64,000 nt of DNA, from contig MU004238.1 of assembly GCA_010405405.1 (NCBI GenBank), forward strand, positions 1,313,530-1,377,529, given 5' to 3'. Shown in pieces: positions 1 to 43,602 of this stretch. How positions within the stretch are numbered: position 1 is the first letter of the stretch; every line of letters starts with the position of its first letter. The notes beneath the pieces were generated by a model, which had not been told where the DNA came from, ran no database searches, and was given only the letters and a program-made list of their open reading frames with translations. This DNA comes from Microthyrium microscopicum. Its lineage: Eukaryota. A program made the position numbers and the translations under genes.

Positions 1-278
1 AGAGCTACTTCTTTAGCTTTAGTATATTCTATAGTTAAGAGAACTAATAAGTTTCTAACTATTATAATTAATAGCTAAGCATACCTCTAAAGTAGCTTAG
101 CTTATAGATAGACTACTCTAGCTTAGAGAAGAACCTTAAAGATTCCTAGGCAATAAGATAAAGGCTAAGGAATTCCTTTATAGTTTCTTAGTAATTACTC
201 CTATTTCTATTTTTATATACCTAATTTATTAAGTATCTTATAACCTTTTTACCTACTCTATAACCCTAATCTCTAATA
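1..278 (+). repeat. 5' LTR of element A (partial)
   Basis: Colinear with 8362-8639 apart from transitions; ends CTAATA (=CTAACA). Confidence 0.9.
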
Positions 279-399
279 TTATAATTACTTCTTACTAATA
301 AAGTACCTATAAAGCTTTTCCTTTAAAATATTATAATTAGTTATAAGTAACGAACTAATAAAACCTAAGGGTAAGGCTCTTAGAGTAAATCTAGTTATA

Positions 400-3300
400 C
401 TAGATATAGCTATACTAACTCTAGTAGGACTAAGTAGCCTTATAGGCAATCCTAATAATATAGAATAAGCCTATCTAGAACTAGTAATAAATATAAAAAA
501 AACACTAGAATAGCTATAAGCTAAAATATAGTAAATACGCAATATACTTAAGATTAAATAACTTAAAGTAATAAAAGTAGCCTATAAACGTAGAGAACTT
601 TGCTTAGTTAAATAGATTAATAAATAGGGTTAATATAATACTAGCTTAGCTATTTTAGCTTATATTAAATATAATAGCTCTAAATTAGCTTATAGTAGTA
701 ATAAATTATAGATATATAAAGCTAAAAGTCTATAAGAATATAAGAATTAGGTCTTTAATATAACTAATATACTTACTATAAAGAAATATAAGGAGGACCT
801 ATACCTAGTAGTTCTCTAAGCCTATAATTACCTTAATAAAGAAGTTATATAACCTACTTAGAATAATTATATTAATTTCTAGACTTAGTTAGCTAAACTA
901 GACTAATATAAACCTACGTAGGCCCTTATAGAATAATAGGCTCTTAAACTCCTTAGTTCGTTTATTAAGAGACGTTATAAAGCCTTCTAGAGCTTCTTAA
1001 TTACTATAATAGAAGAAAAGATCCCCTAAGAATACTTTAATAAGCTTATACTTCTCTTTTATAAGTATAAGATTAATAATATATTAATTTGCTTATTATT
1101 CTTTAGTAATAGACTATCTACTTGCCTTAGAAATAATATAATCTTTAACCTAGACTATATAGTTAAGATAGTTAAAGAAGCTTTATCTTAATATATTTTA
1201 AAGTACTTAAGACTTATTAGTAACTAGAAAATACTAACTACTTCTAAGAAAGATATTAGGAATAGTAAATCCTCTAAATAGCGTTTAATATCTATAGATT
1301 TAGAGGATAAGACTTAATAAGGTTTCTAGAAGAATAAGTTAAAAAAGTCTAGACTAAGCCCTCTTAATAGGGCTTTAAAGCTAGATAAACTAAAGAGTAA
1401 TATAACGCCTAGAGTTAAATAGTTATTCCTTAGTAACCTTAGTAAAAGTAAGTACTAGAACTATACTAAAATAAGCTATATAGCCTATAGCTACCCTAAC
1501 CTAAAGCTAAAGAAGTTAGAAAGAAAAGACTAAACTATAAGGTAGCTAACTAGGACCTTATAGCTTTTATTATAAATAATCTAGTCTTTAACCTCCTTAG
1601 TAACTTCTATAAAGTTATTATTACTTAAGTCCTAGAAGTAGTAAAGAATAAGAGGATTCTAAATAAGAAGGTATACTAATTAAAGAAATTATACTAAATT
1701 ATCTTATAAAAAACTACTTAGAATTAAGTAAGCTAAGATTATATACTATAAAGCATAATAATAGATAGTAAAGCTTATTTTAATATTATAGACTACGCCT
1801 TAGCTAAGAAGCTTTAATTAAAAATATATTATTTCTTAAAAGAGTTAGCTAAGTACCTAAATAGTATACTTATAGCTATTTATAGAGTAGTAACTACTAA
1901 AGTAATAGTAGTTAACTTTAATAAGATCCTAAAGACTAATAAAATATTATTTTATATTATAAACTTACTATACTATATAATTATTATAAGGATACTTTAG
2001 CTTAAGAATTAGAACTCCTTACTAGACTTTAAGGCTAAGACTTTATTCTTTATTTATCTAAAGAATAACTACTATAGTAAGATTAGCTCTATCTTCTTAG
2101 AGGAATTACTTTAATTAGGTTAAGATAAATTTACTTAGCTCTTTAAGTATCTAGTAGGTTTATTAAACTATATTAGCCTATAAAACTTACTATATTACTA
2201 TAAAGAGCTTATAGAAGCCTTTAGTAAAGACAAAGCATAGGATTTAGTAGAATATAGTTTATAGGACTTAGCTATTAACCTTAAGCTAGGTATAAGTATA
2301 CTCTATAGGCCTATTTATAGCCTATTAGAAGTAAAACTAGTTATTTTACGTAAATACCTTAAGAGAGACCTTAAGAAGGGATTTATCTATAAATTTTAGT
2401 CTTTTACTAGAGCTTTAATTATCTTTATAAAGAAGAAGAATAGTACCTTATATCTATATATAGACTATAGAGGCTTAAATAATATTATAATTAAGGACTA
2501 CTATGCTTTACTACTAATTAAAGAGTTATTAAACTAACTATTAAGAGCTAAGCTCTTTATAAGCCTAGATCTCTATAAAGTATACTATTATATTTATATT
2601 TATACTAGTAATAAATAGAAAATAGTATTCTAAACTAAATATAAGTCCTTTAAGTATTAAGTAATACTATTTAAGCTTACTAACGCTTTTATTACCTTTT
2701 AAGTATATATTAACTAAGTTCTATATAGCCTTATTAACGTAACTTATATTATTTATCTTAATAATATCTTTATCTTCTCTAAGAATAAAGAAGATTATAT
2801 TAAGTATATAAAGAAGGTACTTAAAAGACTTATTAAGTTTAAGTTATATACTAAGCTATTAAAGTATAGCTTCTATATAAATTAAACTAAGTACCTTAAG
2901 TACGTTATAACCTTAAATAGTATTATAATAGAATTAGAATAAATTATAATAGTTATAGATTAGCTAATACTATATAATATATATTAAGTAAGAGAGTTTA
3001 TTAGCTTTATAAACTACTATTAATATTTTATTACTAACTTTTTTTATATTATTTTCCTATTAAACTCTTTAATTAAGAAGTTTTTAGGGTAGGCTCTAAA
3101 AGGTTAATAGCTATATAATAAGAAATTAGTTCCTATTAACCTCTCTCCTAAAGCTATTTAATCCTTTAATAACCTAAAGGCTATCTTTATATATACCTTA
3201 ATCTTTACTTACTATAATTCTATATTAAAGACCTATCTAAAGATAAATGCCTCTAAGTAAGTAATCTATAGTATTTTAAGCTAAAAGCAAACTAAGCTAG

Positions 3301-5360
3301 GCTAAGAGAGCTAATAGTAACCTATAGCGTTCTACTTAAGAAAGCTATTAGGACTTAAGAGTTACTATAGAACCCTATAGTAAAAGTTCCTAGCTATTAT
3401 TAACTCTATAAAAGTCTTTTATAAGTATCTATATAGTATTCTAAAGTTCTTAGTCCTAATAGATTATATAAACTTTTATTTACTTAATATATTCTAAAAT
3501 ATCTTTACTATATATATAAGATAGGTAGATTTTCTTACTAAGTTTAAGTTTAATATTAAATACTACCTAGGGAAGATAAACCTTATAAATAGACCTTTAT
3601 AAAGACTAAACTATATCTCTTTAGGTAATATAGAATAGAAAAGAATTATAAATGCCTTATTAAACCTTATCTAAGATAAACTATAACTATTTAAGGTATT
3701 TAAGCTTAATAAAGACCTAATTAGGTTTATTAACGTTTTAGTTATATTTATTAGTACCTTATTATAGTACTTAAGAAATAATTCTTAGGAAGTAGATATT
3801 ATTACTACGTTAAATATATCTAATAGCTTTCTTACTAAGCTAATAAAAGATAAATAAATCTATTTATAGATAGAAGTTACTATAAAGAATAGTAGAGTCT
3901 AAGTTCTTTAATATTTTTATAATAACTTCTTAGAAGAAGGCTATAGAAGCTAACATAAGACGTTAAAGAAGATTTAACGCTATTATACTTAGAATAATAT
4001 TAATAAGAATATCTAAGAGTACTACATAGCCTATTTAGAGTATAAATAAAATACGTCTATTAAATAAGGCTAAAATAGGCTCTTTCTACTCCTACTAGTA
4101 CTAATAGCCCTCTAGAAAGATATTATAGTTAATTTTATTACTAACTTACTCTTAAGTATTTTCTAAAGATAGCTATATAACTTTATTATAGTAGTTATTT
4201 ATAAGCTAACTAAAATAGCTTATTATATACTCTATTATAAAGATATAGATATAAATAATCTTACTAAGCTCTTTTTATATAAGGTAGTATAACTTTATAG
4301 TATACTAAATATAATTATATCTAATAGAGGCTCTATATTTGTCTCTAAGTTCTAAAATATATTCTTCTACTACTTAAAGATCTAATAGAAGCTATTTACT
4401 ACGTTCTAATCTTAGATAGATAAATAAATAAAGCGTTAAAACTAAGAGATTAAGTACTATTTATATATTTACTATAACTAAGAATAGGACAATTAGGCTA
4501 AAAAGCTTAATTTTACTAAGTTTATATATAATAATAATATATATAACTTAACTAGTATTACTCTATTTATAGTATATATAGGTAGATATTTATACGTACT
4601 AAAAGTACCTAAAGAGTATCTAATAAATACTACTTTTAATATAAAGGAACTAATAGAATATATTCTATTTCTCTAAAGAGCCCTTTAAGCTTATTTAGAG
4701 AATATTTAAATTATATAAGCTAAATACTATAATAAAGGCTATAAGGACATTACCTTAAAGGTAAATAACTAAGTTCTACTTAATATAAAGAATATTAGAA
4801 TAGCTAAGTCTAAAAAGAAACTAGATATTAAGTATATAGGCCCTTTTAAAGTAATAAAGATTATTAACTATAATACGTACTATATTAACCTATCTAAAGG
4901 CGCTCTAGTTTATAATATCTTCTATATCTTCTTATTATAATAATATATACTTAATATACGCTTTCTATAATAAATAGTCTTATTTTAAGAAACTTTAGAC
5001 CCTAAAGAGACTAATTACTATAAGGTTAAAGGCGTAATTAAATATAAGGTTAATAAAAATAGTACCTATTATTATAAAGTAAAGTAGAAGAACTACTTTA
5101 TATCTAAAGTAAGCTAGGAACCTACTAGTAACTTCTTCTTAATTACGCTAAAGTATTACTAAGAGAAGTTAAAGAAAAAGGATATTTCTCTAGCTAAATT
5201 AGCTCTAATAAGAGTAACTAAATATAACTTAAAATAACTTAACTTAAATAAACCTTATCTAGAGCCTAAGAAGCTAAGGAGATATCTAAAGAAGCCTTTA
5301 GTACCTACTAAACCTATACTAGCTAAGAAAAGGCTAAATAGACTAAAATAGTTATAATAA
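400..5360 (+). pseudogene. RIP-inactivated gag-pol of element A (PR-RT-RH-IN-chromodomain, AT-hook-like tail)
   Basis: Conserved motifs in Gypsy order, read through RIP-derived stops; boundaries approximate. Confidence 0.85.
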
Positions 5361-5599
5361 GACTTAGAATAAGCCTCTTTTTATAAAGAAGATAAGTATA
5401 AAAGTATAGTTACTTTATAGTATATATAAATATATAATAATAATTTATTTTACTTATAATTAAAATAAGCCTATTTAGATAAAACTAAATAGTACTTAGA
5501 TAGTACTATTATAATACCTTAGAATAAATAAGTTTCTATAGATATATATATAAATATAGTCTAAATAAAAAAGACTTAGAGAAAATTTAGAACTAGATA

Positions 5600-7579
5600 T
5601 AGAACTAATTTTAAACCTAAACTTAAAACTATTAGTATTGCTTTAGCTTTACTTATTAATCTTTAAAGGAGTATCTTTTAAATACTTTAAAATAATAATT
5701 TTAGATTTATAGAGATATATTCCTAAGTACTATCTAGGTTTATAAAAAAGGACTTAGAAATTTAAGAAAGTATTTTATTAAAAGAAACTATCTTATACTA
5801 TTTATATAAATTAGTTTAAATAGAACCTAATAGCTACTAAGTACTAATAAATAGCTTATAATAAACCTAAAATATAACTAACTTTACCTATTAGATACTA
5901 AACGTATTAATTTAATATTAGATATATCTACTAGATACTATATCTACTCTTTAGACTCTTTAGACTCTTTAGACTCTAAATTGTTATCTTTAGAATTAAT
6001 CTAATCTATTATAACTAGATAGTAATAAAGAACTACCTACTTATTTATTCTAAGCTTATACTTATTAATCTAGCTCTAAAGAGTTATAAACTAACCTATA
6101 TTAAAAGCTTTCTCCTTCTTTTTAGTGCTATTAGCTTACTAAGAAGTAAGTATTTTTATAATATTAGTAAGATTACTAATTTAACGTAATAAAGTACTTA
6201 TAACTTAGAATAGAGTTAGTTAGAATTTAAGTAATATAATTAGAGTATTTATACCCTTTTAGCTACTATTTATAAGTAATTTAAATTTATAATAATAAAT
6301 ATAGAGATTATTATAGTACTTAATATAAGTAGTACTAATAATAGCTCTAAGTAAAGCTACTTTAGAGTAATAGATAGCCTTCTTAGTTATAAGGACCTTC
6401 TTACTATTTTTATAATATACTAGTATTATATAGATACTATTATATTTATTCTTAGTAATATTAGAATATAGAGAGAAGGTATTATTTATAGTATTAATAT
6501 AGATATACCTATTTATATTAGTTTAAACCTAAGTATAATAAAAGGATTTACTTATGTCTAGATAGCTTTTATAACGTTCTTATTAGTAATGTAAACTACC
6601 TTTTTAGTATAAAGGAGCTAACCTATATTATACTTACTTAGATTACTATTATAAGTTTACTAGCAAAGTATATAGACCTTTATTACGTTATAATACTTCT
6701 AAAGGAAGTTCTTAGTAATACTCTTCTTATAAAGAATAATCTAAGAAATAATTAGTAATAATTAGATTTAAATTAAATTAATTAGGAATAACTTACTTTA
6801 AAATATTATTAATAGAACTTTATAGTCTTATAGGTTATATAGTAATAACTATCTTAAACCTTAAAGGCTAATACGTAGTCCTTAAAAGCTATATAGTACT
6901 AATCCTTTAAATTAGTATATAAAAAAGTCTTAGTATATACTTTAATATATTACTAATATAGATTAAGTATAAGAAACTATTTAATAATTAACTTAGCCTT
7001 ATTTTTATATAAAATAAACTTATTTATATTAGATAGTTCTATCTTATTATTATTAAAATTATATAAAAGATATTTACTACTTAACTAACTATAATTAATT
7101 AATACGTTATAGATAAAGAAGGTTTAGTATAATTTAAACTAAGCTTAAGTCTTATTAGTACGTATAATACTATTAAAATATATTTACTTTATATTAGGCT
7201 AAGAAAGTTTAGATTTATTATTATAGTTATACTTAGAAGCCTTTCCTTTTTTCTTAGCCTAAATAGTATTCTTTTTAATTTTCTTAAATTTTAAAAGCTC
7301 TAAAGAGGAGTAGTCTAAACTTAATAGTTTAATATAATTATTATTAGTATTAATTTAGGTACTATTAATAAATTTAACCTTATTAGTTACCTTTTTAGTA
7401 GTATTAATATTAATAGAATTAGCTAGTTTTATAATGCTAGTAATTAGAGTCTTTAGTAAAGTAATAGTATCTTTAGAGACCTTAGAGATATCCTTAGAGA
7501 CCTTAGAGGCATTAGATAGAAATAAACTAGGTTTATTTAAAGCCTTATTAGCTTCTACTTTATCCTTTATAGTAGCTAT
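5600..7579 (-). pseudogene. RIPed antisense multi-intron gene of unknown function carried by element A
   Basis: Minus frame from ATA(=ATG) at 7579 has only 3 stops in ~130 codons; exon 6255-6508 has 1 stop in ~85 codons. Intron-like segments at 7139-7187, 6977-7023, 6899-6940, 6741-6796 (GTAAGT..ACTAAT..TAG), 6509-6555 and 6204-6254. Removing 6741-6796 and 6509-6555 joins low-stop frames. Confidence 0.7.
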
Positions 7580-8279
7580 TAGAGAGAATAGATATAAAAA
7601 AATATAAAGTATACTAAGTAGATTTATAAGAAAGCTATTAGTAAAATATTAGGACTACTAGCTAAGACTTATTTTTATACTATAGCCCTATTTATAAAGA
7701 TTAGCTTTACTTAGTTAGCTAAGGTTTACTTAAGTATATATCTTAATTCTATAAAAGTAGAATAAAAAAGAATTAGAAGAAGTATATAATTATAAGATTA
7801 AATATACTTTATTTAATACCCTCTTACCTAATTAGGTTAGTAGAGAGTAAATACTTACTTTATTAAGTACTTCTTATTAAGGAAAGCTTTAATATTAATC
7901 CTTACTATAAGTAAAGATTCTAAAGAGGAAAGTTACCCTTAGTAAGTAATAATCTATAAATTAAGTAGACTTAAGGTAATAGCCTAAGGAAACTTAAAAA
8001 CGCTTAAGTCCCTAATAAACCTAGATAAACCTAAATAAGTACCTAATAGTAACGTTTAGCTTTATAAATTATTATTTAAGAAGTACTCTTTTAAGTAATA
8101 TTTAAAACTAATAATAAGTTTACTAAGATTTACTAAGATTATTATCTAGCTAGTTAGATAGTAGCTAAGTAGTTTATACTATTATAATATAATACGCCTT
8201 AAAGCGTATTAGTACTATTAGAATATAGTTAACTCTTTAGAAATCTATAAGGACGTTTAGGTCCTTATTAGAGAGATAA

Positions 8280-8639
8280 TATTAGGAATTAAACCTAATA
8301 GACTCTTTAAGATAGGTATTATAGCCTAAGTGCCTTAGCCTAATAGCTATTAGAAGCTAGTAGAGCTACTTCTTTAGCTTTAGTATATTCTATAGTTAAG
8401 AGAACTAATAGGTTCCTAATTATTATAATTAGTAGCTAAGCGTACTTCTAAGGTAGCTTAGCTTATAGATAGACTACTCTAACTTAGAGAGAAACCTTAG
8501 AGGTTTTTAGGCAATAAGATAGAGGCTAAGGAATCTCTTTATAGTTCCTTAGTAATTACTCTTATCTCTATTTCTATATACCTAATCTATTAAGTGTCTT
8601 ATAACCTTTTTATCTACTCTATAATCCTAATCTCTAATA
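8280..8639 (+). repeat. 3' LTR of element A (360 bp)
   Basis: Begins TATTAG (=TGTTAG) after purine tract AGAGAGATAA and ends CTAATA; matches 1-278. Confidence 0.85.
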
Positions 8640-8737
8640 GTAGATCTCTATAATCTAATCTAAAAAGTTAACTTTAGTAATACTAGAGACTTTAAGTCTT
8701 ACTAAATTACTAATAGCTTTTTTATGCTAGTACTTAT
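8640..8737 (-). pseudogene. Fragment of pogo/Fot1-like transposase lying between elements A and B
   Basis: Minus frame continues across the CTTAT TSD from F(Q)PYK at 23447-23461 into (H)(W)HKKAI...ITKV(D)FL. Confidence 0.8.
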
Positions 8738-8939: not shown

Positions 8940-11900
8940 TAAAACTAAGATTAATCTAAACCTAAAATTTTATTTCTAGAAGAGCGTATATTAAAATCGC
9001 TAAAATTAACGATTTGTACGTACTTTGTCCTTTGTTTTAGGCTTCTTAATCTATAAGGATACTAACCTATAAATAAGAGGAAATTACGTATAAAGTATCT
9101 TAGTGTTACGTATAGGCCTTTAAGTAGCTTAATTAGGATAATCTTAGTATCTAACCTTACTAAATTCTTTGTAGTAGCTAAGTTCTATACCTATATCTCT
9201 CTCTCTCTATACCTATAATAATAAACTCTTTAGATAAATTACGTTAGATTACTATACTAGAACTATATTCTAAACTTGCTACTCTAAAGAAATAAATCGT
9301 ATATAAAGCTTTTACTAATTTTTGCGTACTAATACTAAAGATATAAATATATTTAGTATCTCTACCTTATAATATATTGTCTACTATCCCTCTAAATAGC
9401 CCTTAATCTAAGACTTGTTTATAATCTAAAATACGCTAATCTTAGTAAAATATAATATAGTCTACTATATAGGAATCTTACTAAAATACTTTTAATAGTA
9501 ATAATAATAAACTATCTACTTAGACTTAACGTAGTTATTAAGGCGCTCTCTTATTATAACAACTATCTATATTATCTTATCGTCTCTTCCTTATACGTAT
9601 ACCTATTTTCTCTAATATTCTAGAATAACCTAAGAATAGCGCTGCTAGTACTTTTTATAGTTAGCTAAAAGGCAAAACTACTAAACTCTATACTATTAAG
9701 CTATATGCTATAGACTAGACTTAGGTAGAATAAATTGCTCTTTAAGAGTAATACTCTTATTACTTTATAATATACGTTACTATTACCCTAGTAGCGAAAG
9801 ACTATATTATATTAACTTACCTTATATATAACTAAATCTTATTCTAAGCTTAGAAAACCTATAACTTTAATAGAGAAGTAGGCTCTATCTCTATTAATCT
9901 TATAATTGTCTAAATCTTATAGAGCGAGTTATAGCTTAAAATTATTAAAGATAGAGTAGGGTTTATATAAAGTATTAGCTTCTACTTTAATACTTAGTTT
10001 AAGTAATTTTAAAACTATATTAAGTCTATCTAAGTAGCTACTATTATATTTAAAGAGACTTATAAAGATCTATTAGAGTTAGCTACTAAATGCTAATATA
10101 ATAATAAAAGTATTAACGATATTATAACCCTACTAAACGCTACTAAGGCTAAAGTTACTAAATAGGCTATTAAGATTAAGTCCTTAGTTAACTTAGCTAC
10201 TATTACTATAAGCTAACTATATAAGTTAAATAACTACTACTTATACCTTAAAGCTAAAATTATAATCCTTTGCTACAACGCTACTAAATTAGTATAAACT
10301 ACTATACGCCTTTAAGAATTATAAACTAAGAAGTAAACTAAAATTACTTAACTCTAAGCTAAAGTTTAAGACTTAGAAGAGTAACTAAGTAACTTTATCT
10401 ATAATAGTAAAGAATAAATATATTAAATAGATTCTAATAAAGAAGCACCTATAGTACTTTTCTATACTTATTAAATATAAAACTTATAAGTTACTACTAG
10501 CCTTACGCCTACTATCTCTAAAAGATTTACTAGCTTTAAGAACTTATCTAGACGCAAATAGGCTAACCTTAGTAAATATAATAGAAAAAAACATAACCTC
10601 TACCTAGTATAGAAACTAAAGGTAAAGAATTACCTATATTATAAAGCACGCTTATTTCCTTCTAAACTAGTATAAGCTATATAGATCTATAATAAATATA
10701 ATAGCCTTATATTAGGCTTCATTATAGACTATATTTAATATAACGCTAAAAATCTTTATATCTCTATAGCTAAATTCTAGAACGATCTTAACCGCTACTT
10801 TAAAAGAACTAGTAAATATAAGGAAGCTCTCCTCTAGCTATAGAACCTACTTAGTAAGATAAAGAAAACTAACGACCTAAATATATAGCTAGTTAAGTTT
10901 ACTAGTAAGACTAATAGCGTAAATCTCTTTAATAGTAATAAGCTTATATACCTTTATAATATAGTTACTAAAGAATTAATAAGCTACCTATATATAAACA
11001 AAGTAACTAATACTATTAACTATATAGTAGAACTTTACTAAGTTAACTAATTAGCTAATTAAAAGAACCCTAATAATAATAACTATAATAATTATACTAA
11101 TAGTCATAGCGCTAATAAGAACCTTAATAAGAACTAGAAGGATAACTAAAAGCTAATTCCTTACTAAGATAGGAACTTATTTAACTATCTAAAGAAAGAA
11201 GAACGCTATCTTTACTATAGTAAAAAAGGCTATAATCCTTATAATAAGAAAGCTTTCTACAAAGGTAAGGAAGCTCTTTATAAGACTATACTCTAAGCTA
11301 AGCTTATAAGTATCTAAACTTAGTTAAATATACAATACTGCTAACCTTTTGCTAAAGATAAGTAGCCTTAAACTTCCTATAGTGATAAATACTACTAAGG
11401 AAATGAGTAACTCCTTAGTAAGGACACGTAAAGAAGCTAAATAATAAAGAAGCATAAAATAGACGTAGAAAACGTTAAATAAAAGTAGTCTAGGCCTACT
11501 TAAATAAGTCTAAAAATAAGGAAGAACCTTATTATAGTATATTAGTTGTCTATATTTCTATAGCTTACCTACTATCTAATTAATAACTAAAATATAATAT
11601 ACCTAAGATAGGTTAATAATAGAGTACTATAAGTTACGTCTTAATATCTAATAGCGTATATACTAAAGCTAAAGTTCTTATTAATACTAGTAGTAAAGCC
11701 TTTAGTATTATTAACTCTTAATATCTTAAACTCTATAGTATTAAATCTATTAAAATATTACGCCCTTACTAAGTAGAGATAGTAAATAGCTATATAATTG
11801 CTACTATAACTTATATAGCATTTATAACCCTTTATATTAGTACCTATTTTAAATAAGCCTTATGCTTTATTATAGAAATTACTAATTACGATATTATTCT

Positions 11901-14381
11901 TAAAGACCTATAAGTTAATAAGTATAAAGTTATACTTTAAAGAGACTAACGTATACTAGGCTTCTACTCTAAGTATTGCTTCTAAAGCTATATTGCCTTA
12001 TATTATCCTATTATAGTAGATTATAAAAGTTATATTATTATAGACAAGAAAAATAAAGATGCTCTAAATATCTATACTATCTCTTCCTACATATTTATAG
12101 TGCTAATTAGCTATAAGAATAACTACTTCTTAGTACTCTATAAAGAAGACTTTAATATACTTAAAGAAGATAAAGATCTAGATTTTATTCCCTAGCAAAA
12201 TATTACTAAGATTACTATAATATTAATAAAAGATTACGTAAAGTAGCGCAAGAAGCTTAAATAAGACCTACTAATATAAGAAGAATTACTTAGTATAATC
12301 CCTAAGGAATTCTATTAATATGTCTATCTTTTTAACCTTAGTTAAGTTAATAAACTATTACCTTATTGTCCTAGATTTAATTATTTAATCCTAACGAATC
12401 TAAATATAAAGGTACTTATATAAAAGTTATATAGTATGTCTTACTAGTAAGCATAAGTTATTAAAGAATATATTAAAAATATACTTAGTAAAGGCTTTAT
12501 CTATAAAAGCACCTCTTAATATATTACTCTAGTTCTTTGCGTAAGTAAATTAGAAAAAAGTATTTAAGTCTACGTTAATTATTATAGATTAAATAAAATT
12601 ACGCTAAAGAATTAGAACGTACTATTACTACTTATAAAAACTCTTACTAAGATTTATAAAGCTAAGTTCTTCTCTAAATTTAACGTTATTACTATATTTA
12701 ATAATATTCATATCTATGAGGGTAATAAATATAAAACTACTTTTTTAATCTATTATAGTTTATTTAAATCCCTTATTATACTATTTAGGATAATAAGCTT
12801 ACTTAGAATATTCTAGGCCTTTATTAATAGCGCCGTCTATAAGTTCCTTAATAACTTTATTACTATCTATCTTAATAACGTTCTTATCTAGAGCAAAATA
12901 AAAGAAAAGCATATTACTTACGTTTACTTAATCTTTAATAAACTTAAGGCTGTAGGACTCTACTTTAATATTACTAAGTTAGAATTTATAACTAAAAGCG
13001 TTAAATATCTTAGTATTATTATTACCCTAGAGGGTATCTTTATAGATAAAAAGAAAGTAGAAGCTATTCTTAAATAGTAATACTTTTCCTTACTAAAAGA
13101 CGTCTAAATGTTTCTTAGCTTTGCTAATTTCTATCGCTACTTTATTAAAAGCTATTTAAAGATTGTAGCACCTTTAATAGCACTTACTAAAAAAGATATT
13201 CTTTAGTAATATCCTTAGAATATTAATAGTCCTAAAGAGGCTACTTTTAAAGCCTTAAAAAAGGCATTTACGTTAGTAAATATCCTTTACTACTTTAATC
13301 TAGATAGAGAGACTTAGCTTAAGATAGACGCCTCTAACTAGGTTGCTATAGCAATATTATTCTAAAAAGATAATAAGGGAATTCTTTGCTCTATTGCCTT
13401 TCTATCTAAAAAGATAATACTTATAGAATATAATTATAATATTTATAATAAAGAACTCTTAGCTATTATTTACGCTTTTAAGAAATAGGAACTAGAACTA
13501 TTCTCTATTAACGACTTAGTTTAGGTCTTTACTAACTATCTTAACCTACGTACGTTTATATTAACTAAGAAGTTATTTTACTATTAGGCTCGTTAGGCTA
13601 AATTCCTATTATAATTTTAATTTAATATTATATATTATAATAGGCTATTAAACGCTAAAGTAGACGCCTTTATACGCTAGTCTTAAGACCTTCCTAAGTT
13701 TAATAACGATCCTTAAGTTGCTTAGTAAGTCCGCCTAATACTATTCTCCTACTACTTTACTAACCTTATAAGTATACGTTATACTATTAAGGTTACTATA
13801 ATCCTAGTGTAGAAGAAATAACCTTTAATAATTAAGTTAGCTATAATTATTACTAATAAGGTTAATATATTTACTATAGAAGGGGAGTTAACTAGTAATC
13901 TAACTATAGAGAGTCATCTTAAGGATACTCTAATCTTAAAGGAGCTAACTAGTAATCCTAAGATAGATAATATACCTATTAACTTAGAGACCTTATAAAA
14001 GAATATTATAAAAGTAAGTAAAAAGAATAAGCTTATATAAGCTATTTATGACTATAAAGTAGCGTAATACTACTATTTACTATATAGTATACTAAAACGT
14101 AAGTCTATTAAATTAGGAAATTATTACGTCCTTCTTAATAGAACTATTTAATACTACTAATAGCTACTTATTTCTTAAGAAAAACTTTACTACTAAGCTA
14201 TATAATATATATATAATTATAAGATTATAGGCTATAAAGGAATAGCTATAATATATTAGCGTATATTTTAGTATTATTACTAGCTACGCATAGCTAAAGA
14301 CGTTAAGTAATATATAAAGTAGTATAAATACGCCTTCTCTAAGCCTATAACGCAAAAGAAATAAGGCCTACTCTAATCTTT

Positions 14382-14584
14382 TGTTACGGATCCTCTCCGT
14401 TGAGATCTCTTCATAAGATCTCTGGCATCCTCGTTACGTAATGCTAAGGGCTTAGCGCCTAAGGTTTAGCTAGCATAGAGCTTATCTCCTGCTAGCCCTA
14501 ATTCCTTTTCTAGATTCTCTATCTTAGTTTTCTTAAATTATATCTATATCTAGATTATACCCTTGCATTTATAGCTTCCTAATA
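14382..14584 (+). repeat. 5' LTR of element C
   Basis: TGTTACGG...CTAATA; near-identical to the B LTRs. Confidence 0.95.
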
Positions 14585-17500
14585 TAAAACTAAGACTACT
14601 CTAATATTTAAAAACCTATTTTTAAAATACGCCTACTAATATTATAAGATTTAATAGTTTATATATCTAAATTTTATTATTCTATACAAAAATAGATCTC
14701 TAGACCTATAAGAATAATAACTCTACTAGCGTAGAGATTTACGTATAAGGACTAAATAGCTTTATAAGTATAGACTAATTAGTAATTAAGGGGAAGATCT
14801 TAGCATCTTCTACCCTATATCTACTAGACCTATAGCAATAGCTTTATCCTATACCTATATCTTCTTCTATATACCTAAATTAATAGTAATAAACCTAAAC
14901 TAAGAATTACTTTTAATTAAAGCGCCTAAACCTTATCCTAAACTAGCTATTCTAATAAAGTAAATTATTTAGAAGGCATTAGCCTATCCTTACGTACTAG
15001 CGCTACCTACTTAATACTATTTAATATTACTTCTTTAGACTATGTTTAGCAAACTTCCTACTAGTTACTAATTAGAGATATGTATATAATCTAAGATTTA
15101 ATAACTCTAAGAGACTACTTAGTCTATAATGTAACAGTTAACCCTAAAAATTTTTAATAGTAATAATAATATAGCTAAACTACCTTATAGCTATAGCTAG
15201 CGTTATTCTTCTATCTACTTTTGCTATTTTTCTCTAGCCTAAGCCCTAATCCTATTAAATATTATTAAATAATCTAAAGGTAGTACTTAAAACCTATTTA
15301 AGAAGGATAAAGGTAAGAAAGCAATACGTTATGACGTATAGCTATATTTACTAGACTAAGATTAGATTAATTAGATTACCCTTAAAGGCTAATACCTATA
15401 GTATTTCGTAATATACGTTAGCATTACTCTAAAAGATTAAACTTGTATTATTTCTACGTACCTTATATAAGATTAAGTAGTATTCTAAATATAAGAGTCT
15501 CTAAACCTAGATAGAAAGATTAGACTTATATTTATTAATTCTATTATACTCTACTATATTTAAGGTGAAGTAGAACTAGAGGTTATTAAAAATAGAATAG
15601 GCTTTACTTATAGCGTTAGCTTCTACGCTAATATCTAGTTTAAGTAACTTTATAACTATATTAAATCTACCTAAGTAGTAAGCATTGCTTTTAAAGCTAT
15701 ACGTATTAACTTAGTAAACTTATTAAAAGAATACTAGTATAATAAGGATAATATATTAAACCTCTCTACTATATATAATAACGCTATAGTATAAAATTCT
15801 TTTCTATAATAACGTATTTATATCCTAGAAAGTAAAGCTACCTAAGCTATAAGCAAAGCTTATTAGTTAATTAAGTAATAGCTTTACCTTAAGGAATAGG
15901 ATATAATTTATTACTATAAAGTAATTAGAGCTATAGATACTATTAAGCATTTATATAACTCTTATACTAAAAAGCGTAACTAAATTATACTCTTAGAAAG
16001 AAAAGTCTAAGACCTTAAAGATTAACTAAGTAATTTAGCCTATAAGACTAAAGAACTAGCGTACTAGATAGACTTTAATAAGGAAGTAGACGCAATGCTA
16101 CCCTTTTAGAGCTACCTACGCCTAAATCTTCGTCTTAATACTAAGAGTATTATACCTACCTTAAAAGTATTAGTAAGCTCTAAAACTAACTCTATATAAG
16201 AATAGTAAGATTCTAATACTTATAATAGTAAGAAATAAGACTTATATCCTTAATAGAAGCTTAAAGTAAAAAACTATCTCTATTATAAAGTACGTACCTT
16301 TCCTAATAAGCTATCTTAAGCTATCTAGGTTCGTAGCAAATATAAAGACCTTACTCTTAGCTTTATTATTAATTATGCTTAATATAACGTACCTAACTTA
16401 TATACTTTTATAGTAGAGTTCTAGGATAATTTTAACTACTATTTTAAAAGTACTAATAAGCATAAAGCTACCCTTCTTTAGCTATAAAATTTATTTAATA
16501 AGATAAAGAAGACTAATAACTTAAGCTCTTACCTAGTTAAGTTTACTAGTAAAACTAATAGAGCCTACTTATCTAATACTAATAAACTAACTTATATACG
16601 TAATATAATTACTAAAGAGCTAATAAGCTATCTCTATACTAGTAAAGTAACTATAAGCGCTAAGTTTATAACAGAACTATAATAAGTTAATTACTTCTTA
16701 GACTATAAGAAGTCTAATAATAAAGATAAGAATAAGGATAAGAATAAGGATAAGAATACCTAGAAGATAATTCTACGTTATAGCAATATCCTATTTTTAT
16801 ACCTTAAGAAAGAAGAATACTACCTATAATATAGTAATAAAGGCTATAATCTATAATCTAAAATTGTACCCTACTAAAATAAAGATACTATATCTAATAA
16901 TAATATCTAAACTAAATTAGCTTTAATCTATACTTCTTAGTTATACTATACTCTAAGCATAGAAGATAATAAAGACGTATTCCTAACTTATAGCTAACGC
17001 TAAGGAAACACGTAGCTTCTTTATACTAACGTACGAATAAGCTAAACTCTAATAAGGCGCAAAATAAATAAAAGAAACATTAGATAGAAGCTATCTAAGC
17101 TTACTTAAGTAAATCTAAATCTAAGGAAGAACCTTATTATAATATAGTAGTAGTCTATATATTTACTACTTATCTACTAATTAATTAATTACTAGAAACT
17201 AATACTATTCTAAAAGTAGGATAATAGTAGAGTACTATAGAGAGTATCTTTCTCTTAGATAGCTCTTATACTAAAGTAAAAATTCTTATTAATATAAGTA
17301 ATAGCATATTTAGTATTATTAATCCTTATTACCTTTAACTTTATAGCCTTAAATCTATTAAAATATTAAGACTTTATTAAGCTAAGATAGCTAATAGTTA
17401 TGCCATCGCTACTATAACTTATATAATATTTATTACTTTATATATTAGTATTTATCTTAAATAAGCTTTATGCTTCATTATAGAAATTACTAACTATAAT

Positions 17501-20500
17501 ATTATCCTTAGAGACCCTTAAGTTAATAAGTATAAAGTTATACTTTAAGGAAGCTAATAAATATTAGGCTTCTACTCTAAGCACTATCTCTAAAGCTATA
17601 TAGCTTTATACTATCCTATTATAGTTAATTATAGAGGCTAAGTAGTTATAGAAAAGAAGAATAAGAATATTCCTAATATTTACGTTATTTCTTCTTATAT
17701 ATTTATAACTTTAATATAGTAAGAGAAAAACTAATTCTCTATATTATATAAAGAAGATTTTAACGCATTAGAAAAAGAAGAAGATCTAGATTCTATTCCT
17801 TAGCGCAATATTATTAGTATTATAGTAATCTTAATAAAAGACTATACTAAATAGTAAGAGAAGCTTAAATAAGATCTACTAATATAAAAAGAATTACTTA
17901 GTCTAATCTCTAAAGAATTTTACTAATATATTTACCTCTTTAACCTAGTATAAGTTAATAAATTACTACTCTATTGCCCTAGATTTAACTACTTTATCCT
18001 AATAGATTTATAAGCTAAAGTACCTATATAGAAGTTCTATAGGATATTGCGCTAATAAGCTTAAGTTATTAAAGAGTATATTAAAAATATGCTTAGAAAA
18101 GGCTTTATCTATAAAAGTACTTCTTAATATGCCTTACTAGTTCTTTACGTTAGTAAACTAGGTAGAGGTATCTAGGTCTACGTAGATTACTATAGATTAA
18201 ACGAAATTACCTTAAAGAATTAGAACATTTTATTACTTTTTACTAAAACCTTTATAAAGATCTACAAAGCTAGATTTTTCTCTAAATTTAATATTATTAC
18301 TACCTTTAATAATATTTATATCTATAAAGGCAATAAGTATAAAACTACCTTTCTTACCTACTATAGCCTATTTAAGTCTCTTATTATGCTATTTAGTATA
18401 ACTAGCTCCCTTAGAATATTCTAAGCTTTTATTAATAGCGCCGTTTAAGAATACCTAGATAATTTTGTTACTATATACCTAAATAACGTCTTTATTTAGA
18501 GCAAAACTAAAGAAGAGTATATTGCTTACGTCTATCTAATCCTTAATAAGCTTAAGAAGGCTAGCCTTTACCTTAATATTACTAAGTTAGAATTTATAAC
18601 TAAGAGCGTTAAATACCTTAGTATTATTATTATACCTAATAAAATCCTTATAGACGAAAAGAAAGTAGAAGCAATACTAAAATAGTAATGCTTCTTATTA
18701 CTTAAAGACGTCTAGATATTCTTAAGCTTTATAAACTTCTATTGCTAATTTATTAAAGGATACTTAAAAATCATAGTACTAATAATAGTACTTACTAAAA
18801 AGAACGTCTCTTAATAATATCCCTAGAACCTAGACAGCCCTAAAGAGGCTACTTTTAAAGCCTTAAAGAAAGTTTTTACTATAGTACTAATCTTATAATA
18901 TTTTAATCTTAATAAAGAGACCTAGCTTAAAACTAATGCCTTTAACTAAGTTGCTATAGTAGTCCTCTTATAGAAGAATAACGATAAAGAACTTTACCTA
19001 GTTACCTTTCTATCTAAAAAGATAATACTAGTAGAGTATAACTATAATATTTATAATAAAGAACTACTTATAATTATCTACGTATTTAAAGAATAGGAAC
19101 TAGAGCTATTCTTTACTAATAATTCTATTAAAGTCTATATAGACTATCTTAACTTAAAGTTATTTATATCTATAAAAAAGCTCTCTTACTATTAAGCGCG
19201 CTAAGTAGAGTTCCTATTATAATTCTAATTTAAAATTAAATACTATAATAGACTATTAAATACTAAAGCTAATATCCTTACTTAACGATCTTAGGACCTA
19301 CTATAATTTAATAATAACCTATAAGTTATATAATAAGTACGTTCTATACTATTTCCCTACTATTTTACTAATACTTATAGTACGTACTATATATTTAATA
19401 TAATTACTTATAATACGTACTAAGCTATTAAGGTAGTAACTATACTAGTTTAGGGTAAATACCCTTTAATAATTAAGTTAGCTATAATTATTACTAATAA
19501 AGTTAATATATTTACTATAGAAAGGGAGTTAACTAGTAATCTAACTATAAGGAGTTATTCTAAGGATACTCTAACCTTAGAGGAATTAATTAGTTATTCT
19601 AAGGTAGAGAATATACTTGCTAACCTAGAAACATTATAGAAGGATATTATTAAAGTAAGTAAAAAGGATAAGCTTATTTAAGCTATCTATGACTATAAAG
19701 TAGTATAGTATTACTACTTGCCTTATAGTATATTAGAACGCGAATCTATTAAGCTTAGAGACTATTAAGTCCTTATAGATAGAACTATTTAATATTACTA
19801 GCGCCTACTAGTCTCTTATAGAAAACTTTACTATTATATAATATAATACGTATATAATTATAAGATTATAGGATATAGAGATACTACTACAACTTATTAA
19901 CGTCTATTCTAATTCTACTACTAGCCTTATATAGTAGAAGACGTTAAGTAATATATAAAATAATGCTACTACGCTTTCTCTAAGCTAGTAATATAAAAGA
20001 AATAAGGCCTATTATAATTATTCTTTCTACTAAACTATATATAGGCTAATATCTTAATTAACTTTATTATTGCGTTACTACTATACGTCTACTTAGAAGT
20101 TATTTATTACTACGCTATAATAGTAGTTAATAGACTTACTTGTATCTACTACTTTATATCCTTAGCTAACCTTAACGTCTAGATAATAGTATTAGTATTC
20201 CTTAACTAGATATAGAAGTATACTAGCTAGCTAGACTCTATCTTATCTAATTATAGATCTTAATTTACTTTAGCCTTTTAGCGCTACTTATATAAGTAAG
20301 TAGAAGTAATAATCTATCTTACTACTACTTAGTACCTATAATCTAATAGTATTACTAAGATTATAGTATAAGCCCTAAAGGCTTACTTATAATGCTTCGT
20401 TAATTACTAATAGAATAATTAGGTAAGACTCTTACTATTTACTAAGTTTAAGGCTAACTACGCTATCTACGCTATAACTAAAATAAGCCTATTTAAAGCG

Positions 20501-21523
20501 CTTAATAGCTTATTACTATACTCTAGCTTAGAACTAGGTATACTAGGTAAAGTATTTATAGGCTCTAAGCTAGTATAAAGTAAATAACGCTCTATAGATA
20601 TATTCCTTAAAGATAGATAAGATTTACGCAATTATCTCTATAAGTAAATTTTATAGTCTTAGGTACTAATAAACAAGTAAGTTAACTAATACTACTATCT
20701 AATACCTAACCTTAAACTAGGCAACTAAGTACGTCTAGACATACGTTACTATAAAACTCTTTACCCCTCTAAATTACTTAATAATAAATCTACTAGTCTA
20801 TTTAAGATCTTAAAGAAGATTAATATACTTACTTATAAGCTTAATCTCTTTAAGAAGATAAAAATATACCCTATCTTCTATGCCTAGCTTTTATACCTTA
20901 TCCTTAAAGGTGCTACTATACTATAAGAACCTAATAATCCTCTAGCTATTACTAATCTAGAAGGAAACGACGATAAGTAGGAATAGTTAGTTAATTACGT
21001 TATTAATAGCCATTAACATAACTAGTAAGAAAAAGGTAAAAAGAAGATACTTTAATACAAAGTTAAATTTACTAGATAGGATAATTAGAATTACGACCTA
21101 GATTAGTAACTATAAATAAATCTTAAATTATGCCCTAAGCTCGTTATAGAGTTTTATAACTATAATCCTATAAAACTAGGCCCTTACAAGTTATTTATTA
21201 ACCCTTAGAAGAAGAAGGATAAAGAATATAACTCTAATAGCATTCTCCCTAATTAGTAAGGTTATTATTATTACTATAGTAGTATCCTAATACTTCTACG
21301 AACTAGAGTATTTTAAGGATATCTTATAGTTTATTAATGCTACTTAATAGTTACCTTAGTAGGCTAGAGGGTAGTAAAGAATAGATACTTATAGTATTAT
21401 ACATAGAAGGATATTAAACTCTTTGCTTTTATTATTATAGTTATAATACGTTTTATACCTATTATAGCGTTATCCTATATAGTTAGATTAGCTTAAGAGC
21501 ACTAATATTAGAGAGGGGAGTAT

Positions 21524-21726
21524 TATTATAGATCTTCTCTATTAAGATCTCTTTATAAGATCTTTAGTATCCTTATTATGTAATACTAAGGGCTTAGTGC
21601 CTAAGGTTTAGCTAGCATAGAGCTTATCTCCTACTAGCCCTAATCCCTCTTCTAGATTCTCTATCTTAGTTTTCTTAAATTATATCTACATCTAGATTAC
21701 ATCCTTACATCTATAGCTCCCTAATA
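21524..21726 (+). repeat. 3' LTR of element C
   Basis: Follows the PPT, matches 14382-14584 and is followed by TSD TCTTT. Confidence 0.95.
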
Positions 21727-23244
21727 TCTTTCTCCCTACTAAACTATGCGTAGGTAGATATTTTAATTAACTTTACTATTACCCTACTACTATATATCTA
21801 TATAGGCATTATCTACTAATACGCTATAATCGTAGTTAATAGACTTACCTATACACGCTAGTTCGTCTCCTTACCTAATCTTAGCGTCTAGATAATAGTT
21901 CTAGTATTCCTTAACTAGATCTAGAAATACATTAGCTAGCTAGACTTAATCTTATTTAATTATAAATCTTAATTCACCTTAGCCTTTTAGCGCTATCTCT
22001 ATAAACGAGTAGGCGTTATTATTTATCTTACTACTACTTAGTACTTATAGTTTAATAGAATAACTAAGATTGTAGTATAAGTATTAAAAGCCTACCTACG
22101 CTGCTTTATTAATTATTAATAGAACGATTAAGTAGAACTCCTGCCTTTTGCTAAATTTGAAGCTAATTACGCTATTTACGCTACTACTAAGATAAGCCTA
22201 TTTAAAGCGCTTAATAGCTTACTACTACGCTCTAATCTAGAACTATTAGCTCTTAGTAAAACTTTCTCTAGAACTAAGTCATTCTAAGATAACTAACGCC
22301 TTACTAATATATTCTAAAAAAGTAAATAAGACTTGCGCAACTATCTTTATAAGTAGATTACTTAGTTATAAGTATTAATAGATAAATAGGTCAACTATTA
22401 TCGTTACCCCGCTCTAAACCTTAAACTTAGTAATTAGGTCCGCCTTAATATATATTACTATAAGACTCTTTACCTATTAAAGTTACTTAATAATAAGTCT
22501 ACTAGATTATTTAAGATCTTAAAGAAGATTAATACGCTTACCTATAAGCTTAATCTACCTAATAAAATAAAAATATACCCTATATTCTACGCTTAGCTAT
22601 TATACCCTATACCTAAAGGCGCTACTATCCTCTAAGAACCTAATAACCCTCTTGCCATTATTAATCCTAAAAGAAACAACAATAAGTAAGAATGAACTAT
22701 TAACTACGTTATTAATAGCTAATAGTATAACTAGCATAGCAAAGGTACTAAAAAGATACTATAATATAAAGTTAAATTTACTAGATAGAACGACTAGAAT
22801 TATAATCTAGATTAGTAACTATAGATAGACCTAGAGTCATGTCTAGAGCTTGTTACTAAATATTACGACTAGAACCCCTTAAAACTAGGCCCTTATAAGT
22901 TATTTATTAACCTATAGAAGAAGAATAATAATAACTACGACTCTAATAGTATTCTCTCTAATTAGTAAGGATATATTTTCATTACTATAGCAGTATCCTA
23001 GTACTTCTACGAACTAAAGTATTCTAAGGACATCTTATAGTTCATTAATGCTACTTAATAGTTACTTTAGTAAGCTAGAGGATAGTAAAAGAATAGATAC
23101 TTGTAGTGCTATATACTAAAGGATGTTAAACTCTTTGCTTTTACTTTGTTATCGTTTATAATACATTTTATACCTATTTGCTTTAGTAGCATTATTCTGC
23201 ATATAGGATTAGCTTAGGAGCGCTAATTTTAGAAGGGAGAGTAT

Positions 23245-23446
23245 TATTATAGATCCTTTCCGTTAAGATCTCCTTTAGAGATCTTTGGCATCTTATTACG
23301 TAATGCTAAGGGCTTAGCGCCTAAGGTTTAGCTAGCATAGAGCTTATCTCCTACTAGCCCTAATCCCTCTTCTAGATCCTTTGTCTTAGTTTTCTTAAAT
23401 TATATCTATATCTAGATCGCACCCTTATATCCGTAGCTCCCTAACA
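23245..23446 (+). repeat. 3' LTR of element B
   Basis: Follows the PPT, ends CTAACA and is followed by TSD CTTAT. Confidence 0.95.
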
Positions 23447-24601
23447 CTTATAAGGCTAAAATACTAAGACGTCTAAAAGTTATAGAATCTATAAAGTATA
23501 AAGTAATAAGAAGAAGGGAATTATCTTATTATTAAGGTAAAAAAAGAGGAAATTCTTTATAGTTTAACTCTTATAGCTATTAAGAATTAAGAGCCTAAAT
23601 TCACCCTTTTAAAACGTCTTTATAGCTTCGTTAAAGTGCTTTATCTAACTAAGAAGGATCTCGTTATTTATATAAGCTAATTCTAAAGTATTAAAATACT
23701 AATTATTAAATAGGGATATTAAACAAACCTAATCTTCTTATGCTTTACTAGATTTTAATTATAGAATAACCTATAGAGGAATATAATTACTAGTAGTATT
23801 TATATACTCTACTATAGTAACAAGTTCCTAATTTAATTCCTTTAGAGCTATAATCTATTACCTCTTTTTACCTAAAGTTATAAGAATAATAATATTCTCT
23901 TTATTACTAATTCTAATACGAAATCCTTCTTTATTAATATTCTAAAGATCTTTAGCCTAAATTCTAAGTCTCTAAAGCTTTCCTTCTAATTTATTATACT
24001 AATCTTTTATATCTTTTAGGTCTTTAGCTACTGCTCGTTTAAGATCCTTTAAATTATTAATTTAGAGGAATAATTTAACGTAGAATTACTTTATAAAGTA
24101 GCGTGACTAGTAATCTCTAAGTAATAAGGGTTCAAAATCTAGCAGATTATTTAGATAGTCTTTAAGTAACTTATAAGCGGCTATTTTAATCATAAGAATA
24201 TTCCTATTAATACCTAGCTTATAGAGATCCTTTATAAATAAAATAATTACTTATTCTTTATATTATTAAAGATGTATGTTAGCTCTACGTTATTTACTTC
24301 TTATTTTTATTCCTTAAAGGTAATCGTTAAAGGTCTATAGATTTATACTATATATGTATATATATTCTAATTTAGACTTCTAACTACTACGTTTCTACGT
24401 AGATAAGGCTTTAAGCATAATAATAAGACGCAAATTAAAATAATAATATAATAGGGAATACGTAGGGGGATAGGATTAAGAAGATGTATTTATTTTAGGC
24501 TAATTCTTAGCATTCTGGCGGGTGAACTAGCTGGCGGGTGAGCTGGCGGGCATCCCCTAGCGGGGATGTCTAGTCTTAGGGATGGGTATGCATTAACACA
24601 C
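23447..24601 (-). mobile_element. pogo/Fot1-like (Tc1/mariner superfamily) DNA transposon, 5' part, RIPed
   Basis: De-RIPed minus translation gives LGDHWSR.F (HTH), WNIDEEGFRIG, NRELVTIVECINAAG..IPPWVI, FRLLILDGHES and PHTSQILQPLDVSVFQPYK, typical of DDE_1 transposases. GC-rich terminus with CTGGCGGG repeats at 24514-24550, followed by TA at 24602-24603; exact terminus uncertain. Confidence 0.85.
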
Positions 24602-38300: not shown

Positions 38301-38402
38301 CTCAACCTGCTCAGTATTTGACTCGGCTGGAGGATCTGTGGATAGGGCATTATCGGTTTGCATCGACTGCATAAAGGCGGCTTCATCGCCAAAGTCGGCC
38401 AT
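35386..38402 (-). CDS. RNA14: mRNA 3'-end processing factor Rna14/CstF-77 (HAT repeats)
   Basis: Three ORF segments joined by two introns (~37641-37685, ~37163-37207). HAT-repeat motifs LWSKYLDYVRR, LRKAYRQAIAIP, WKAWIEWEK and KIFERGMKLFP. Confidence 0.9.
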
Positions 38403-42986: not shown

Positions 42987-43602
42987 TGTCAAGAGTATCT
43001 GTAATGTGGTCCTATCATGATTGCGTTTGAGCTACACTGCAAACTCCGGGGAATACTGTATCAAGCAATGGTTGGCTTCAACATGGTAAACTTTATGCCG
43101 AAGGCAGTGGGAGAAACGCCTTCTGATATCGAGCAGACTACTTGATGTTAGAGGGCGATCTAGTTGCATTACGTTTTTGGGAACATATGTAATAGAACTT
43201 TTCTGGTAGAGGATCATAGGTCGTCAAAGTTCACGAGGAACGCATTTTAGATCTTATTTGCAGTGTTCAGATTAGTTGATTGAGATTCGCTTTTACTCGT
43301 GTAAATAACTGTAATGGATATACAGGACTCCTTTCTATGCGTATCGGTAGCAGCTCGGAGCCACCTGTCTTACTTTGCGCGCAACTCGAGCAAGCCCTCT
43401 TGACCTCTGTGTAATCTACCTCAGCGCTTGTCTCACGCGCTATTTACCGTACTCGTGGCGACACTCTACTCATCAGGGAAAAATTCAATACATAAGCTTA
43501 TTTGAACCAGCGCATTGAACTTGTCTGGTCTTGCGCTGTCATCATATCTTGACAAAGAAGTTCGAAATCCTGGCGATATCGCAATCTGCTCCCTCGTCAA
43601 CC

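Follow-up and report, generated by a model that had tools for sequence, protein, structure and literature searches.

Layout of element A

The DNA analysed here (the window) is a stretch of 64,000 nucleotides (nt) from the fungus Microthyrium microscopicum (assembly GCA_010405405.1, contig MU004238.1, positions 1,313,530 to 1,377,529 of the forward strand), and it opens with a degenerate long terminal repeat (LTR) retrotransposon that we call element A. Our subject is the region of this element between pol and the 3′ LTR, where the strand opposite gag-pol appears to hold the relic of a spliced protein-coding gene. Element A lies in the first of two AT-rich blocks (1-24000 and 54001-64000 of the window; GC content, 0.20 to 0.28), between which are ordinary genes (GC content, 0.43 to 0.55). 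The coordinates of all features are collected in Table 1.

Element A is a Ty3/Gypsy element: its LTRs (90.7% identical over 281 bases) enclose gag and a pol whose domains are ordered reverse transcriptase, RNase H, and integrase. When 282-5350 was read in one frame, with X at stops, and compared with Pfam, the matches were RVT_1 (5.1e-7), RT_RNaseH_2 (4e-9), RT_RNaseH (2.6e-7), and the integrase-associated SH3_Tf2-1 (9.9e-12). A word-index search with pol returned 19 matches (best, 4.8e-65) of mixed taxonomy, which do not place the family. The gag region has no Pfam match; it does resemble, in its sense frames alone, the gag of a second Gypsy element in the window, element B (35.4 bits; E, 1e-5). 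Pfam gave no chromodomain in element A at an E value of ≤1, and a motif near 5020-5140, compared by eye with the chromodomain consensus, is what we take to be chromodomain-like.

We regard element A as saturated with repeat-induced point mutation (RIP), since its pol frame is broken by point mutations only, its pol contains no TGA codons, and DNA contigs of the source organism depart from this copy almost exclusively by transitions. Of the 1,216 codons of the RIPped pol, 7.3% are in-frame stops. TGA is absent from all six frames of the pol of A (1602-5250) and of B (57900-61600, minus strand), as well as from the coding-like segments described below, which fits a near-complete loss of TpG/CpA, i.e., RIP that is saturated at its preferred site. 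TGA is consequently useless here as a marker of noncoding frames. A few TG dinucleotides survive elsewhere, for example, at 6555-6556.

The initial annotation of this DNA had put about 2.9 kb between the end of pol and the 3′ LTR. We measured 3.0 kb with the LTR at 8362, and the original figure is recovered if the LTR begins near 8280. Several contigs from DNA of the source organism break off in loose ends (at 278, 8280, and 8637), and the LTR may span ca. 8280 to 8640, with the 5′ copy cut by the start of the window. A purine-rich tract immediately upstream of 8280 is a possible polypurine tract. Presumably, both the polypurine tract and an antisense promoter lie within 7580-8361.

Stop codons between pol and the 3′ LTR

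Across all six frames of the AT-rich DNA in the window, the longest stretches free of stops are two on the antisense strand of this region, one of 97 codons (7358-7648) and the other of 87 codons (6262-6522). The long antisense open frames reported in the initial annotation thus hold up, and its stop counts (three in about 130 codons from 7579 and one in 6255-6508) were both reproduced. To these we added a frame-path test, in which the path with the fewest stops is found, frame switches being allowed at a penalty, and is compared with the paths of 300 dinucleotide shuffles. The best antisense path through 5600-7579 contained 51 stops (shuffled, 65.5 ± 4.4), a number as low as this being reached by 1 of the 300 shuffles; the best sense path contained 48 (shuffled, 62.8 ± 4.3), and no shuffle was as low. 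Stop density on the antisense strand is therefore lower than in shuffled sequence, as the original proposal needed it to be, yet in element A the sense strand is depleted to the same extent. In element B, the depletion favors the antisense strand (z, −4.7 versus −2.5 for sense).

Depletion relative to the shuffles is present in 5400-7700 of A and in 55600-57900 of B. By the same test, the LTR-proximal stretches (7700-8361 of A and 54700-55600 of B) show no stop depletion on either strand. Contigs carry alternative letters at 11 positions of the region, none of which bears on the stops.

Coding signal and strand

Three codon-periodic models were used to ask more of this DNA than its stops can tell. 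Model 1 (order 2) took the RIPped pol of both elements as its training set, with leave-one-out pol controls. Model 2 reduces the sequence to purines and pyrimidines, so that its signal is unaffected by RIP, and was trained on non-RIPped host open reading frames (ORFs). Model 3, which like model 1 reads all four letters, was trained on those host ORFs once they had been RIP mutated in silico and is independent of any transposon sequence.

Model 1 found three antisense segments in A, namely, 7576-6812 (255 codons; score, 19.4), 6728-6561 (56 codons; 6.4), and 6519-5947 (191 codons; 11.1). The best of these scores was reached by none of 200 dinucleotide shuffles (7.7 ± 1.9), and the best sense score, 5.4, lies under the shuffle level. 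In B, the best antisense score was 15.3 (shuffles, 9.2 ± 2.3, of which 3 of 200 reach it) and the best sense score was 5.3. For the pol controls, the sense scores were 44.6 and 46.8 and the antisense scores 8.9 and 7.4, and the LTR-proximal flanks gave no score. Model 2, which assigns pol 21.7 on the sense strand and at most 5.6 on the antisense strand, places the pol-to-LTR region of both elements above the flanks. Under model 3, A scored 17.8 and 16.0 antisense versus at most 7.8 sense; for pol the scores were 38.5 and 44.1 sense and 17.5 and 7.7 antisense, and the flanks reached 4.0 at most. The coding-like signal is restricted to 5941-7579, and the ca. 700 bases that adjoin the LTR are without it.

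Codon-position composition points to the same strand. In the first and longest antisense segment of A (exon 1 below), the second codon position is 47% A, 31% T, 17% C, and 4% G, and T exceeds A at the third position. The antisense frames in general resemble RIPped pol and gag in this respect (A above T and C above G at position 2; T above A at position 3). The sense frames have 44 to 57% T at position 2 in four of five segments, the fifth having 51% T at positions 1 and 2, and G exceeds C at position 2 in four of the five; this is the mirror pattern of a noncoding complement.

Two other sources of such a signal were considered and set aside. Tandem repeats, which could generate periodicity, cover less than 100 nt of the region in total, and the search for an inverted duplicate, whether of gag or pol of the same element or of another element in the window, gave a best match with an E value of 0.044 over 32 residues. 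Taken together, the two four-letter models and the codon-position composition lend moderate support to protein-coding sequence on the strand opposite gag-pol; there is no single decisive test behind this call.

Introns and a spliced gene model

The initial annotation had proposed about six introns on the antisense strand, two of which (6741-6796 and 6509-6555) were said to restore the frame when removed. The claimed signals of these two are present, and their removal joins the three coding-like frames. Beyond these, we find support for one canonical alternative (6637-6558, 80 nt) to the second of them; either version of intron 2 preserves the frame, and the two are not distinguishable. What stands of the proposal is accordingly a coding-like antisense region of about 500 codons that contains introns, extends through the family, and recurs in the same layout in B; the count of six introns was overstated.

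When a strict fungal pattern was applied (GT[AG]NGT, a CTRAY-type branch site, and YAG), the antisense strand of the pol-to-LTR region yielded matches at 6796-6741 and 6637-6558 in A and matches starting at 56604 and 56987 in B, a rate of 2 per 2.3 kb in each element versus 9 in ca. 50 kb-strands of gag-pol and other AT-rich DNA. The canonical matches on this strand coincide with frame switches. Intron 1 of A sits in the 83-nt gap between the first two segments, and its 56 nt make the correct frame change; in B, the donor GTACGT at 56604 stands exactly at the end of the first coding segment. As signals relaxed for RIP permit many alternatives, intron detail beyond intron 1 of A is tentative.

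The resulting three-exon model (7579-6797, 6740-6556, and 6508-5941) has 512 codons with 32 in-frame stops (6.2%), and the variant with the alternative intron 2 has 501 codons with 32 stops (6.4%). An unspliced single frame from 7579 has 67 stops in 546 codons (12.3%). Within exon 1, stops are no more frequent than in the RIPped pol. Its initial ATA (7579-7577) may once have been an ATG that RIP altered. At the other end of the model, the ESK-ESK-ESK repeat noted in the initial annotation corresponds to 3.6 tandem copies of a 9-nt unit (5946-5977).

In two runs of the same sample, a single DNA contig each time passes directly from 6445 to 6828, omitting 382 bases, among them exon 2 and both proposed introns. 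With ends of TT..TC and just 22 letters to one side of it, the joint is not what an intron would leave, and we set it aside; some copy of the element may have this deletion, or the contig may be misplaced.

Presence across the family and in element B

Contigs from DNA of the source organism (ca. 2,960 in one run and 2,948 in another) cover all 30 bins of 1-8700, and their depth over 5221-7830 is like that over pol, contig depth being no measure of copy number. This even cover indicates that the pol-to-LTR region belongs to the family and is not a private insertion; by the same measure, it is present in most family copies. Contigs from a second organism also fall on 5990-8080.

Element B is a RIP-saturated Gypsy element on the minus strand (ca. 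63200-54450) that is related to A. Its pol (61371-57879) is 68.6% identical to 1801-5236 of A, fragments of its LTRs match at 63021-62902 and 54510-54473, and its pol-to-3′ LTR region, of ca. 3 kb, has the same layout. B also contains a further, very open antisense stretch (55506-55892; 129 codons with 2 stops) that is T-rich at codon position 2 and has no counterpart in A.

The putative antisense product

No Pfam family was found at an E value of ≤1 in the six frames of 5237-8361, read with X at stops, though pol domains in the same RIP state were found. An exhaustive HMMER search with exon 1 among 1.84 billion representative proteins gave no relatives at an E value of ≤0.001, and a word-index search with exon 3 gave 97 candidates, none at an E value of ≤0.01. 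The RIPped gag, which served as a power control for the latter, gave 1,492 candidates and likewise none at an E value of ≤0.01, so these blanks carry little force for proteins other than pol in this RIP state. The main antisense segments have 31 to 38% T at codon position 2, and the share of hydrophobic residues in the original product was presumably ordinary, because the observed T at this position can only exceed the value before RIP.

Other features of the window

At 9632-24271, on the plus strand, are other RIPped retroelements whose ORF fragments recur about 5.6 kb apart (12616/18224 and 12892/18500); the repeats suggest tandem or nested copies of a family that lacks a long pol-to-LTR region. 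Ordinary host genes fill 25000-53000, between the two AT-rich blocks (Table 1).

Table 1. Coordinates of element A, of the antisense segments of element B, and of host genes in the window
Feature	Position	Strand	Remarks
5′ LTR, element A	1..281	+	Matches 8362-8642; contig loose ends at 278; probably truncated by window start
gag region, element A	300..1450	+	Low-stop frame +f0, unlike pol frame; positive coding score
pol, element A (reverse transcriptase, RNase H, integrase)	1500..5350	+	One frame; interrupted by RIP stops only
Spacer, end of pol to 3′ end of antisense gene	5351..5940	.	No coding-like segment on either strand
Antisense exon 3	5941..6508	-	Segment 6519-5947, 191 codons, 11.1; holds the 87-codon run 6262-6522; ends ESK-ESK-ESK, then stop
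Antisense intron 2 (as first proposed), 47 nt	6509..6555	-	ATAAGT (RIP-form donor)..AACTAAT..TAG
Antisense exon 2	6556..6740	-	Segment 6728-6561, 56 codons, 6.4; weakest part of the model
Antisense intron 1, 56 nt	6741..6796	-	GTAAGT..ACTAAT..TAG; strict pattern match
Antisense exon 1	6797..7579	-	Segment 7576-6812, 255 codons, 19.4; model 3, 17.8
9/21-nt in-frame repeat near N terminus, SK[VD]-type peptide	7468..7516	-	Repeat search and translation
Noncoding stretch, antisense gene to 3′ LTR	7580..8361	.	No stop depletion; no coding signal in three models
3′ LTR, element A	8362..8642	+	LTR comparison; contig loose ends at 8637
Antisense coding-like segments, element B	55954-56607, 56702-56884, 57042-57254	+	Model 1 best, 15.3
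Na+/H+ exchanger	29977-30705	-	
Acyl-CoA dehydrogenase	32513-33169	-	
Suf/Rna14-like	35386-38519	-	
GrpB	43531-44184		
SNF2/HIRAN/RING helicase, Rad5-like	44396-47281	-	
Squalene/phytoene synthase	48079-49110		

Discussion

On balance, and with limited confidence, we favor the reading that the region between pol and the 3′ LTR of element A holds what RIP has left of an accessory gene of a fungal Gypsy family, one that was antisense and contained introns. Whatever it once encoded, the gene is dead in this genome; all examined copies are RIP mutated, and this copy carries 32 in-frame stops.

Such a gene would have counterparts at the same position in other elements. The Boty element of Botrytis cinerea and Sclerotinia sclerotiorum has an antisense gene between pol and the 3′ LTR (PMC7264820), named brtn (PMC8365987, PMC4227169), and a BRTN-like transcript has been reported in Monilinia (PMC5987419). 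The novelty for fungi implied in the initial annotation was therefore overstated, brtn of Boty being already in print (PMC7264820, PMC8365987). Like A, Boty is a fungal Ty3/Gypsy element with an extra gene on the opposite strand between pol and the 3′ LTR (PMC7264820). Judging from the name “brtn-106” (PMC4227169), however, its product may be far smaller than the ca. 510 codons of A, and the gene of element A, by description and not by sequence comparison, is a RIP relic with at least two putative introns. Our literature search for fungal antisense cases besides brtn of Boty found none.

In plants, the corresponding ORFs (aORF-3R) include gene23 of maize Grande and those of rice RIRE2, Silene Retand, and Phaseolus PvRetro13 (PMC7264820). 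The pol-to-3′ LTR regions of Retand measure 2.9 to 6.6 kb and contain antisense ORFs, most of which encode a TRP28 domain (PMC11963269). The position is shared with element A, in which the pol domains end at about 5350, the segments occupy 5947-7576, and the LTR begins at 8362 or ca. 8280. The host of A, in contrast, is a fungus, and our six-frame Pfam search found no Transposase_28/TRP28 domain (PF04195). The word “intron” occurs 0 times in the available text of PMC7264820 and PMC11963269, whereas the gene of A, in our model, bears introns. A looser parallel is provided by the retroviral antisense genes HBZ of HTLV-1 and APH-2 of HTLV-2 (cited in PMC11963269), which are likewise read from the 3′ end against gag-pol and for which a regulatory role has been proposed. 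This is an analogy only; host and element type differ, and there is no relation in sequence or domain. We read the antisense gene of A as an intron-bearing form of an already known class of antisense accessory genes and not as something categorically new.

A number of our results weigh against this reading. Stop depletion in element A is the same on both strands (z, −3.0 sense and −3.1 antisense), and an 82-codon sense open run overlaps the 97-codon antisense run; because both strands are depleted, the strand in A is not decidable from stop counts alone. Model 2 scores both strands of A (15.0 and 9.4 antisense; 12.0 and 7.4 sense) and is ambiguous in B, where the sense strand is slightly higher at order 3, and model 3 is ambiguous for B as well (11.1 antisense versus 9.7 sense). 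Moreover, in other elements of the window the noncoding “shadow” strand scores up to half as much as the sense strand (e.g., 41.0 versus 80.2), and for this reason the strand call rests on the 2- to 3-fold ratio, the composition, and the introns and not on absolute scores. In exon 2 of A, 6 of the 62 codons are stops (ca. 10%). Neither strict-pattern intron of B preserves the frame as matched. The first does so with the third downstream AG (56673), not with the first two; the second candidate (56987) loses the frame as written, the search for an alternative acceptor having covered the first candidate only.

The main weakness of the accessory-gene reading is, however, the dissimilarity of the A and B proteins. 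In a composition-corrected BLASTP comparison, the antisense translations of A and B gave a top score of 19.6 bits, while controls from the same region gave 17 to 18.5 bits in the wrong orientation and 20.0 bits for sense versus sense. The putative protein is thus not conserved between the two elements in the way that gag is (35.4 bits). Segment shuffles gave weak collinear hints for the first segments of both elements (z, 2.9) and for the third of A with the second of B (z, 3.7), each matched by 1 of 300 shuffles, among nine comparisons. As gag of A and B is significantly alike while the antisense translations are not, the putative antisense protein would have diverged more rapidly than gag, unless the regions of A and B lack homology.

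The best of the competing explanations is that the coding signal is real and antisense but belongs to a passenger. Part of a host gene together with its introns, or part of another mobile element, would have been captured in reverse orientation by an ancestor and coamplified, with no role in the life cycle of the element. A captured genomic fragment would carry introns, and the lack of significant protein similarity between A and B here, where gag retains it, fits relaxed constraint or independent captures; transduction has indeed been discussed as an origin of such ORFs (PMC11963269). We nonetheless think this unlikely, as the region has even coverage across the family and is found in a second organism, and as two families whose pol genes are just 68.6% identical have it at the same position with similar segment sizes. 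In addition, no conserved host family or transposase domain was recognized in it, while pol domains in the same RIP state were.

It could also be argued that nothing was ever encoded here and that an extremely AT-rich, TA-dominated RIP composition produced by chance the scarcity of stops, the periodicity, and the strings that resemble introns. Strings such as GTAAGT, CTAA, and TAG are common at such a composition, RIP-relaxed signals can bridge almost any frame switch, the searches for homologues were blank, and the similarity of the A and B proteins is not significant. Against this, dinucleotide shuffles seldom or never attain the observed scores, and the neighboring ca. 700 to 900 bases, which have the same composition, are blank in four tests. 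The host-trained, RIP-invariant purine/pyrimidine model flags the region too, and the pattern recurs independently in B. We therefore consider chance quite unlikely.

Least probable, in our judgment, is a third ORF on the sense strand downstream of pol (e.g., an env-like one) of which the antisense signal would be the shadow: the sense strand of A is as depleted of stops, has open runs of 53 to 97 codons, and is not separated from its complement by the purine/pyrimidine model, but no env-like sense ORF emerged downstream of pol (sense scores, ≤5.4 in model 1 and ≤7.8 in model 3, with shadow-like composition), both four-letter models favor antisense in A 2- to 3-fold (the pol-trained one in B too), the reading would need the extreme T content at the second codon position and the excess of G over C there described above, the sense path switches frame as well, with its sole strict intron match (6146-6208) not at a switch, and the stop depletion of B favors the antisense strand.

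If the accessory-gene reading is correct, the ancestor of the Gypsy families A and B would have carried, between pol and the 3′ LTR and on the strand opposite gag-pol, a gene of ca. 510 codons with at least two short spliceosomal introns. In the genomic RNA of the element, these introns would be antisense and could not be spliced, and they would thus be copied at each retrotransposition; that antisense introns persist because they are not spliceable from genomic RNA is established logic. Transcription would presumably start from a promoter of the gene's own in the ca. 700 noncoding bases that adjoin the 3′ LTR. The product would be a protein whose composition is ordinary and which has short peptide repeats toward either end; by analogy with the plant antisense ORFs and the retroviral antisense genes, it may influence in trans how the element itself is expressed or replicated. 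A stronger form of this proposal can be offered tentatively at best. It holds that a fungal Gypsy lineage possesses an antisense gene for a protein of ca. 510 residues that belongs to no known family, that has kept its spliceosomal introns (the first intron-bearing case for fungal LTR elements), and that would encode a trans-acting factor, e.g., one with an anti-silencing function; we doubt that all of this will hold together.

The practical weight of the finding is limited by the fact that the gene is dead here and that its product is not identifiable from this copy. The analysis does illustrate that RIP-saturated DNA can still be read for coding potential and strand through codon-periodic models, purine/pyrimidine coding, and codon-position composition. 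Little is understood of the accessory genes of LTR retrotransposons, and if our reading is true, the existence of another antisense gene, larger than the first and with introns, in a fungal Gypsy family that looks unrelated would suggest repeated origins of genes of this type. It would also be a natural example of antisense introns that survive retrotransposition and would provide a new candidate for element-encoded regulators.

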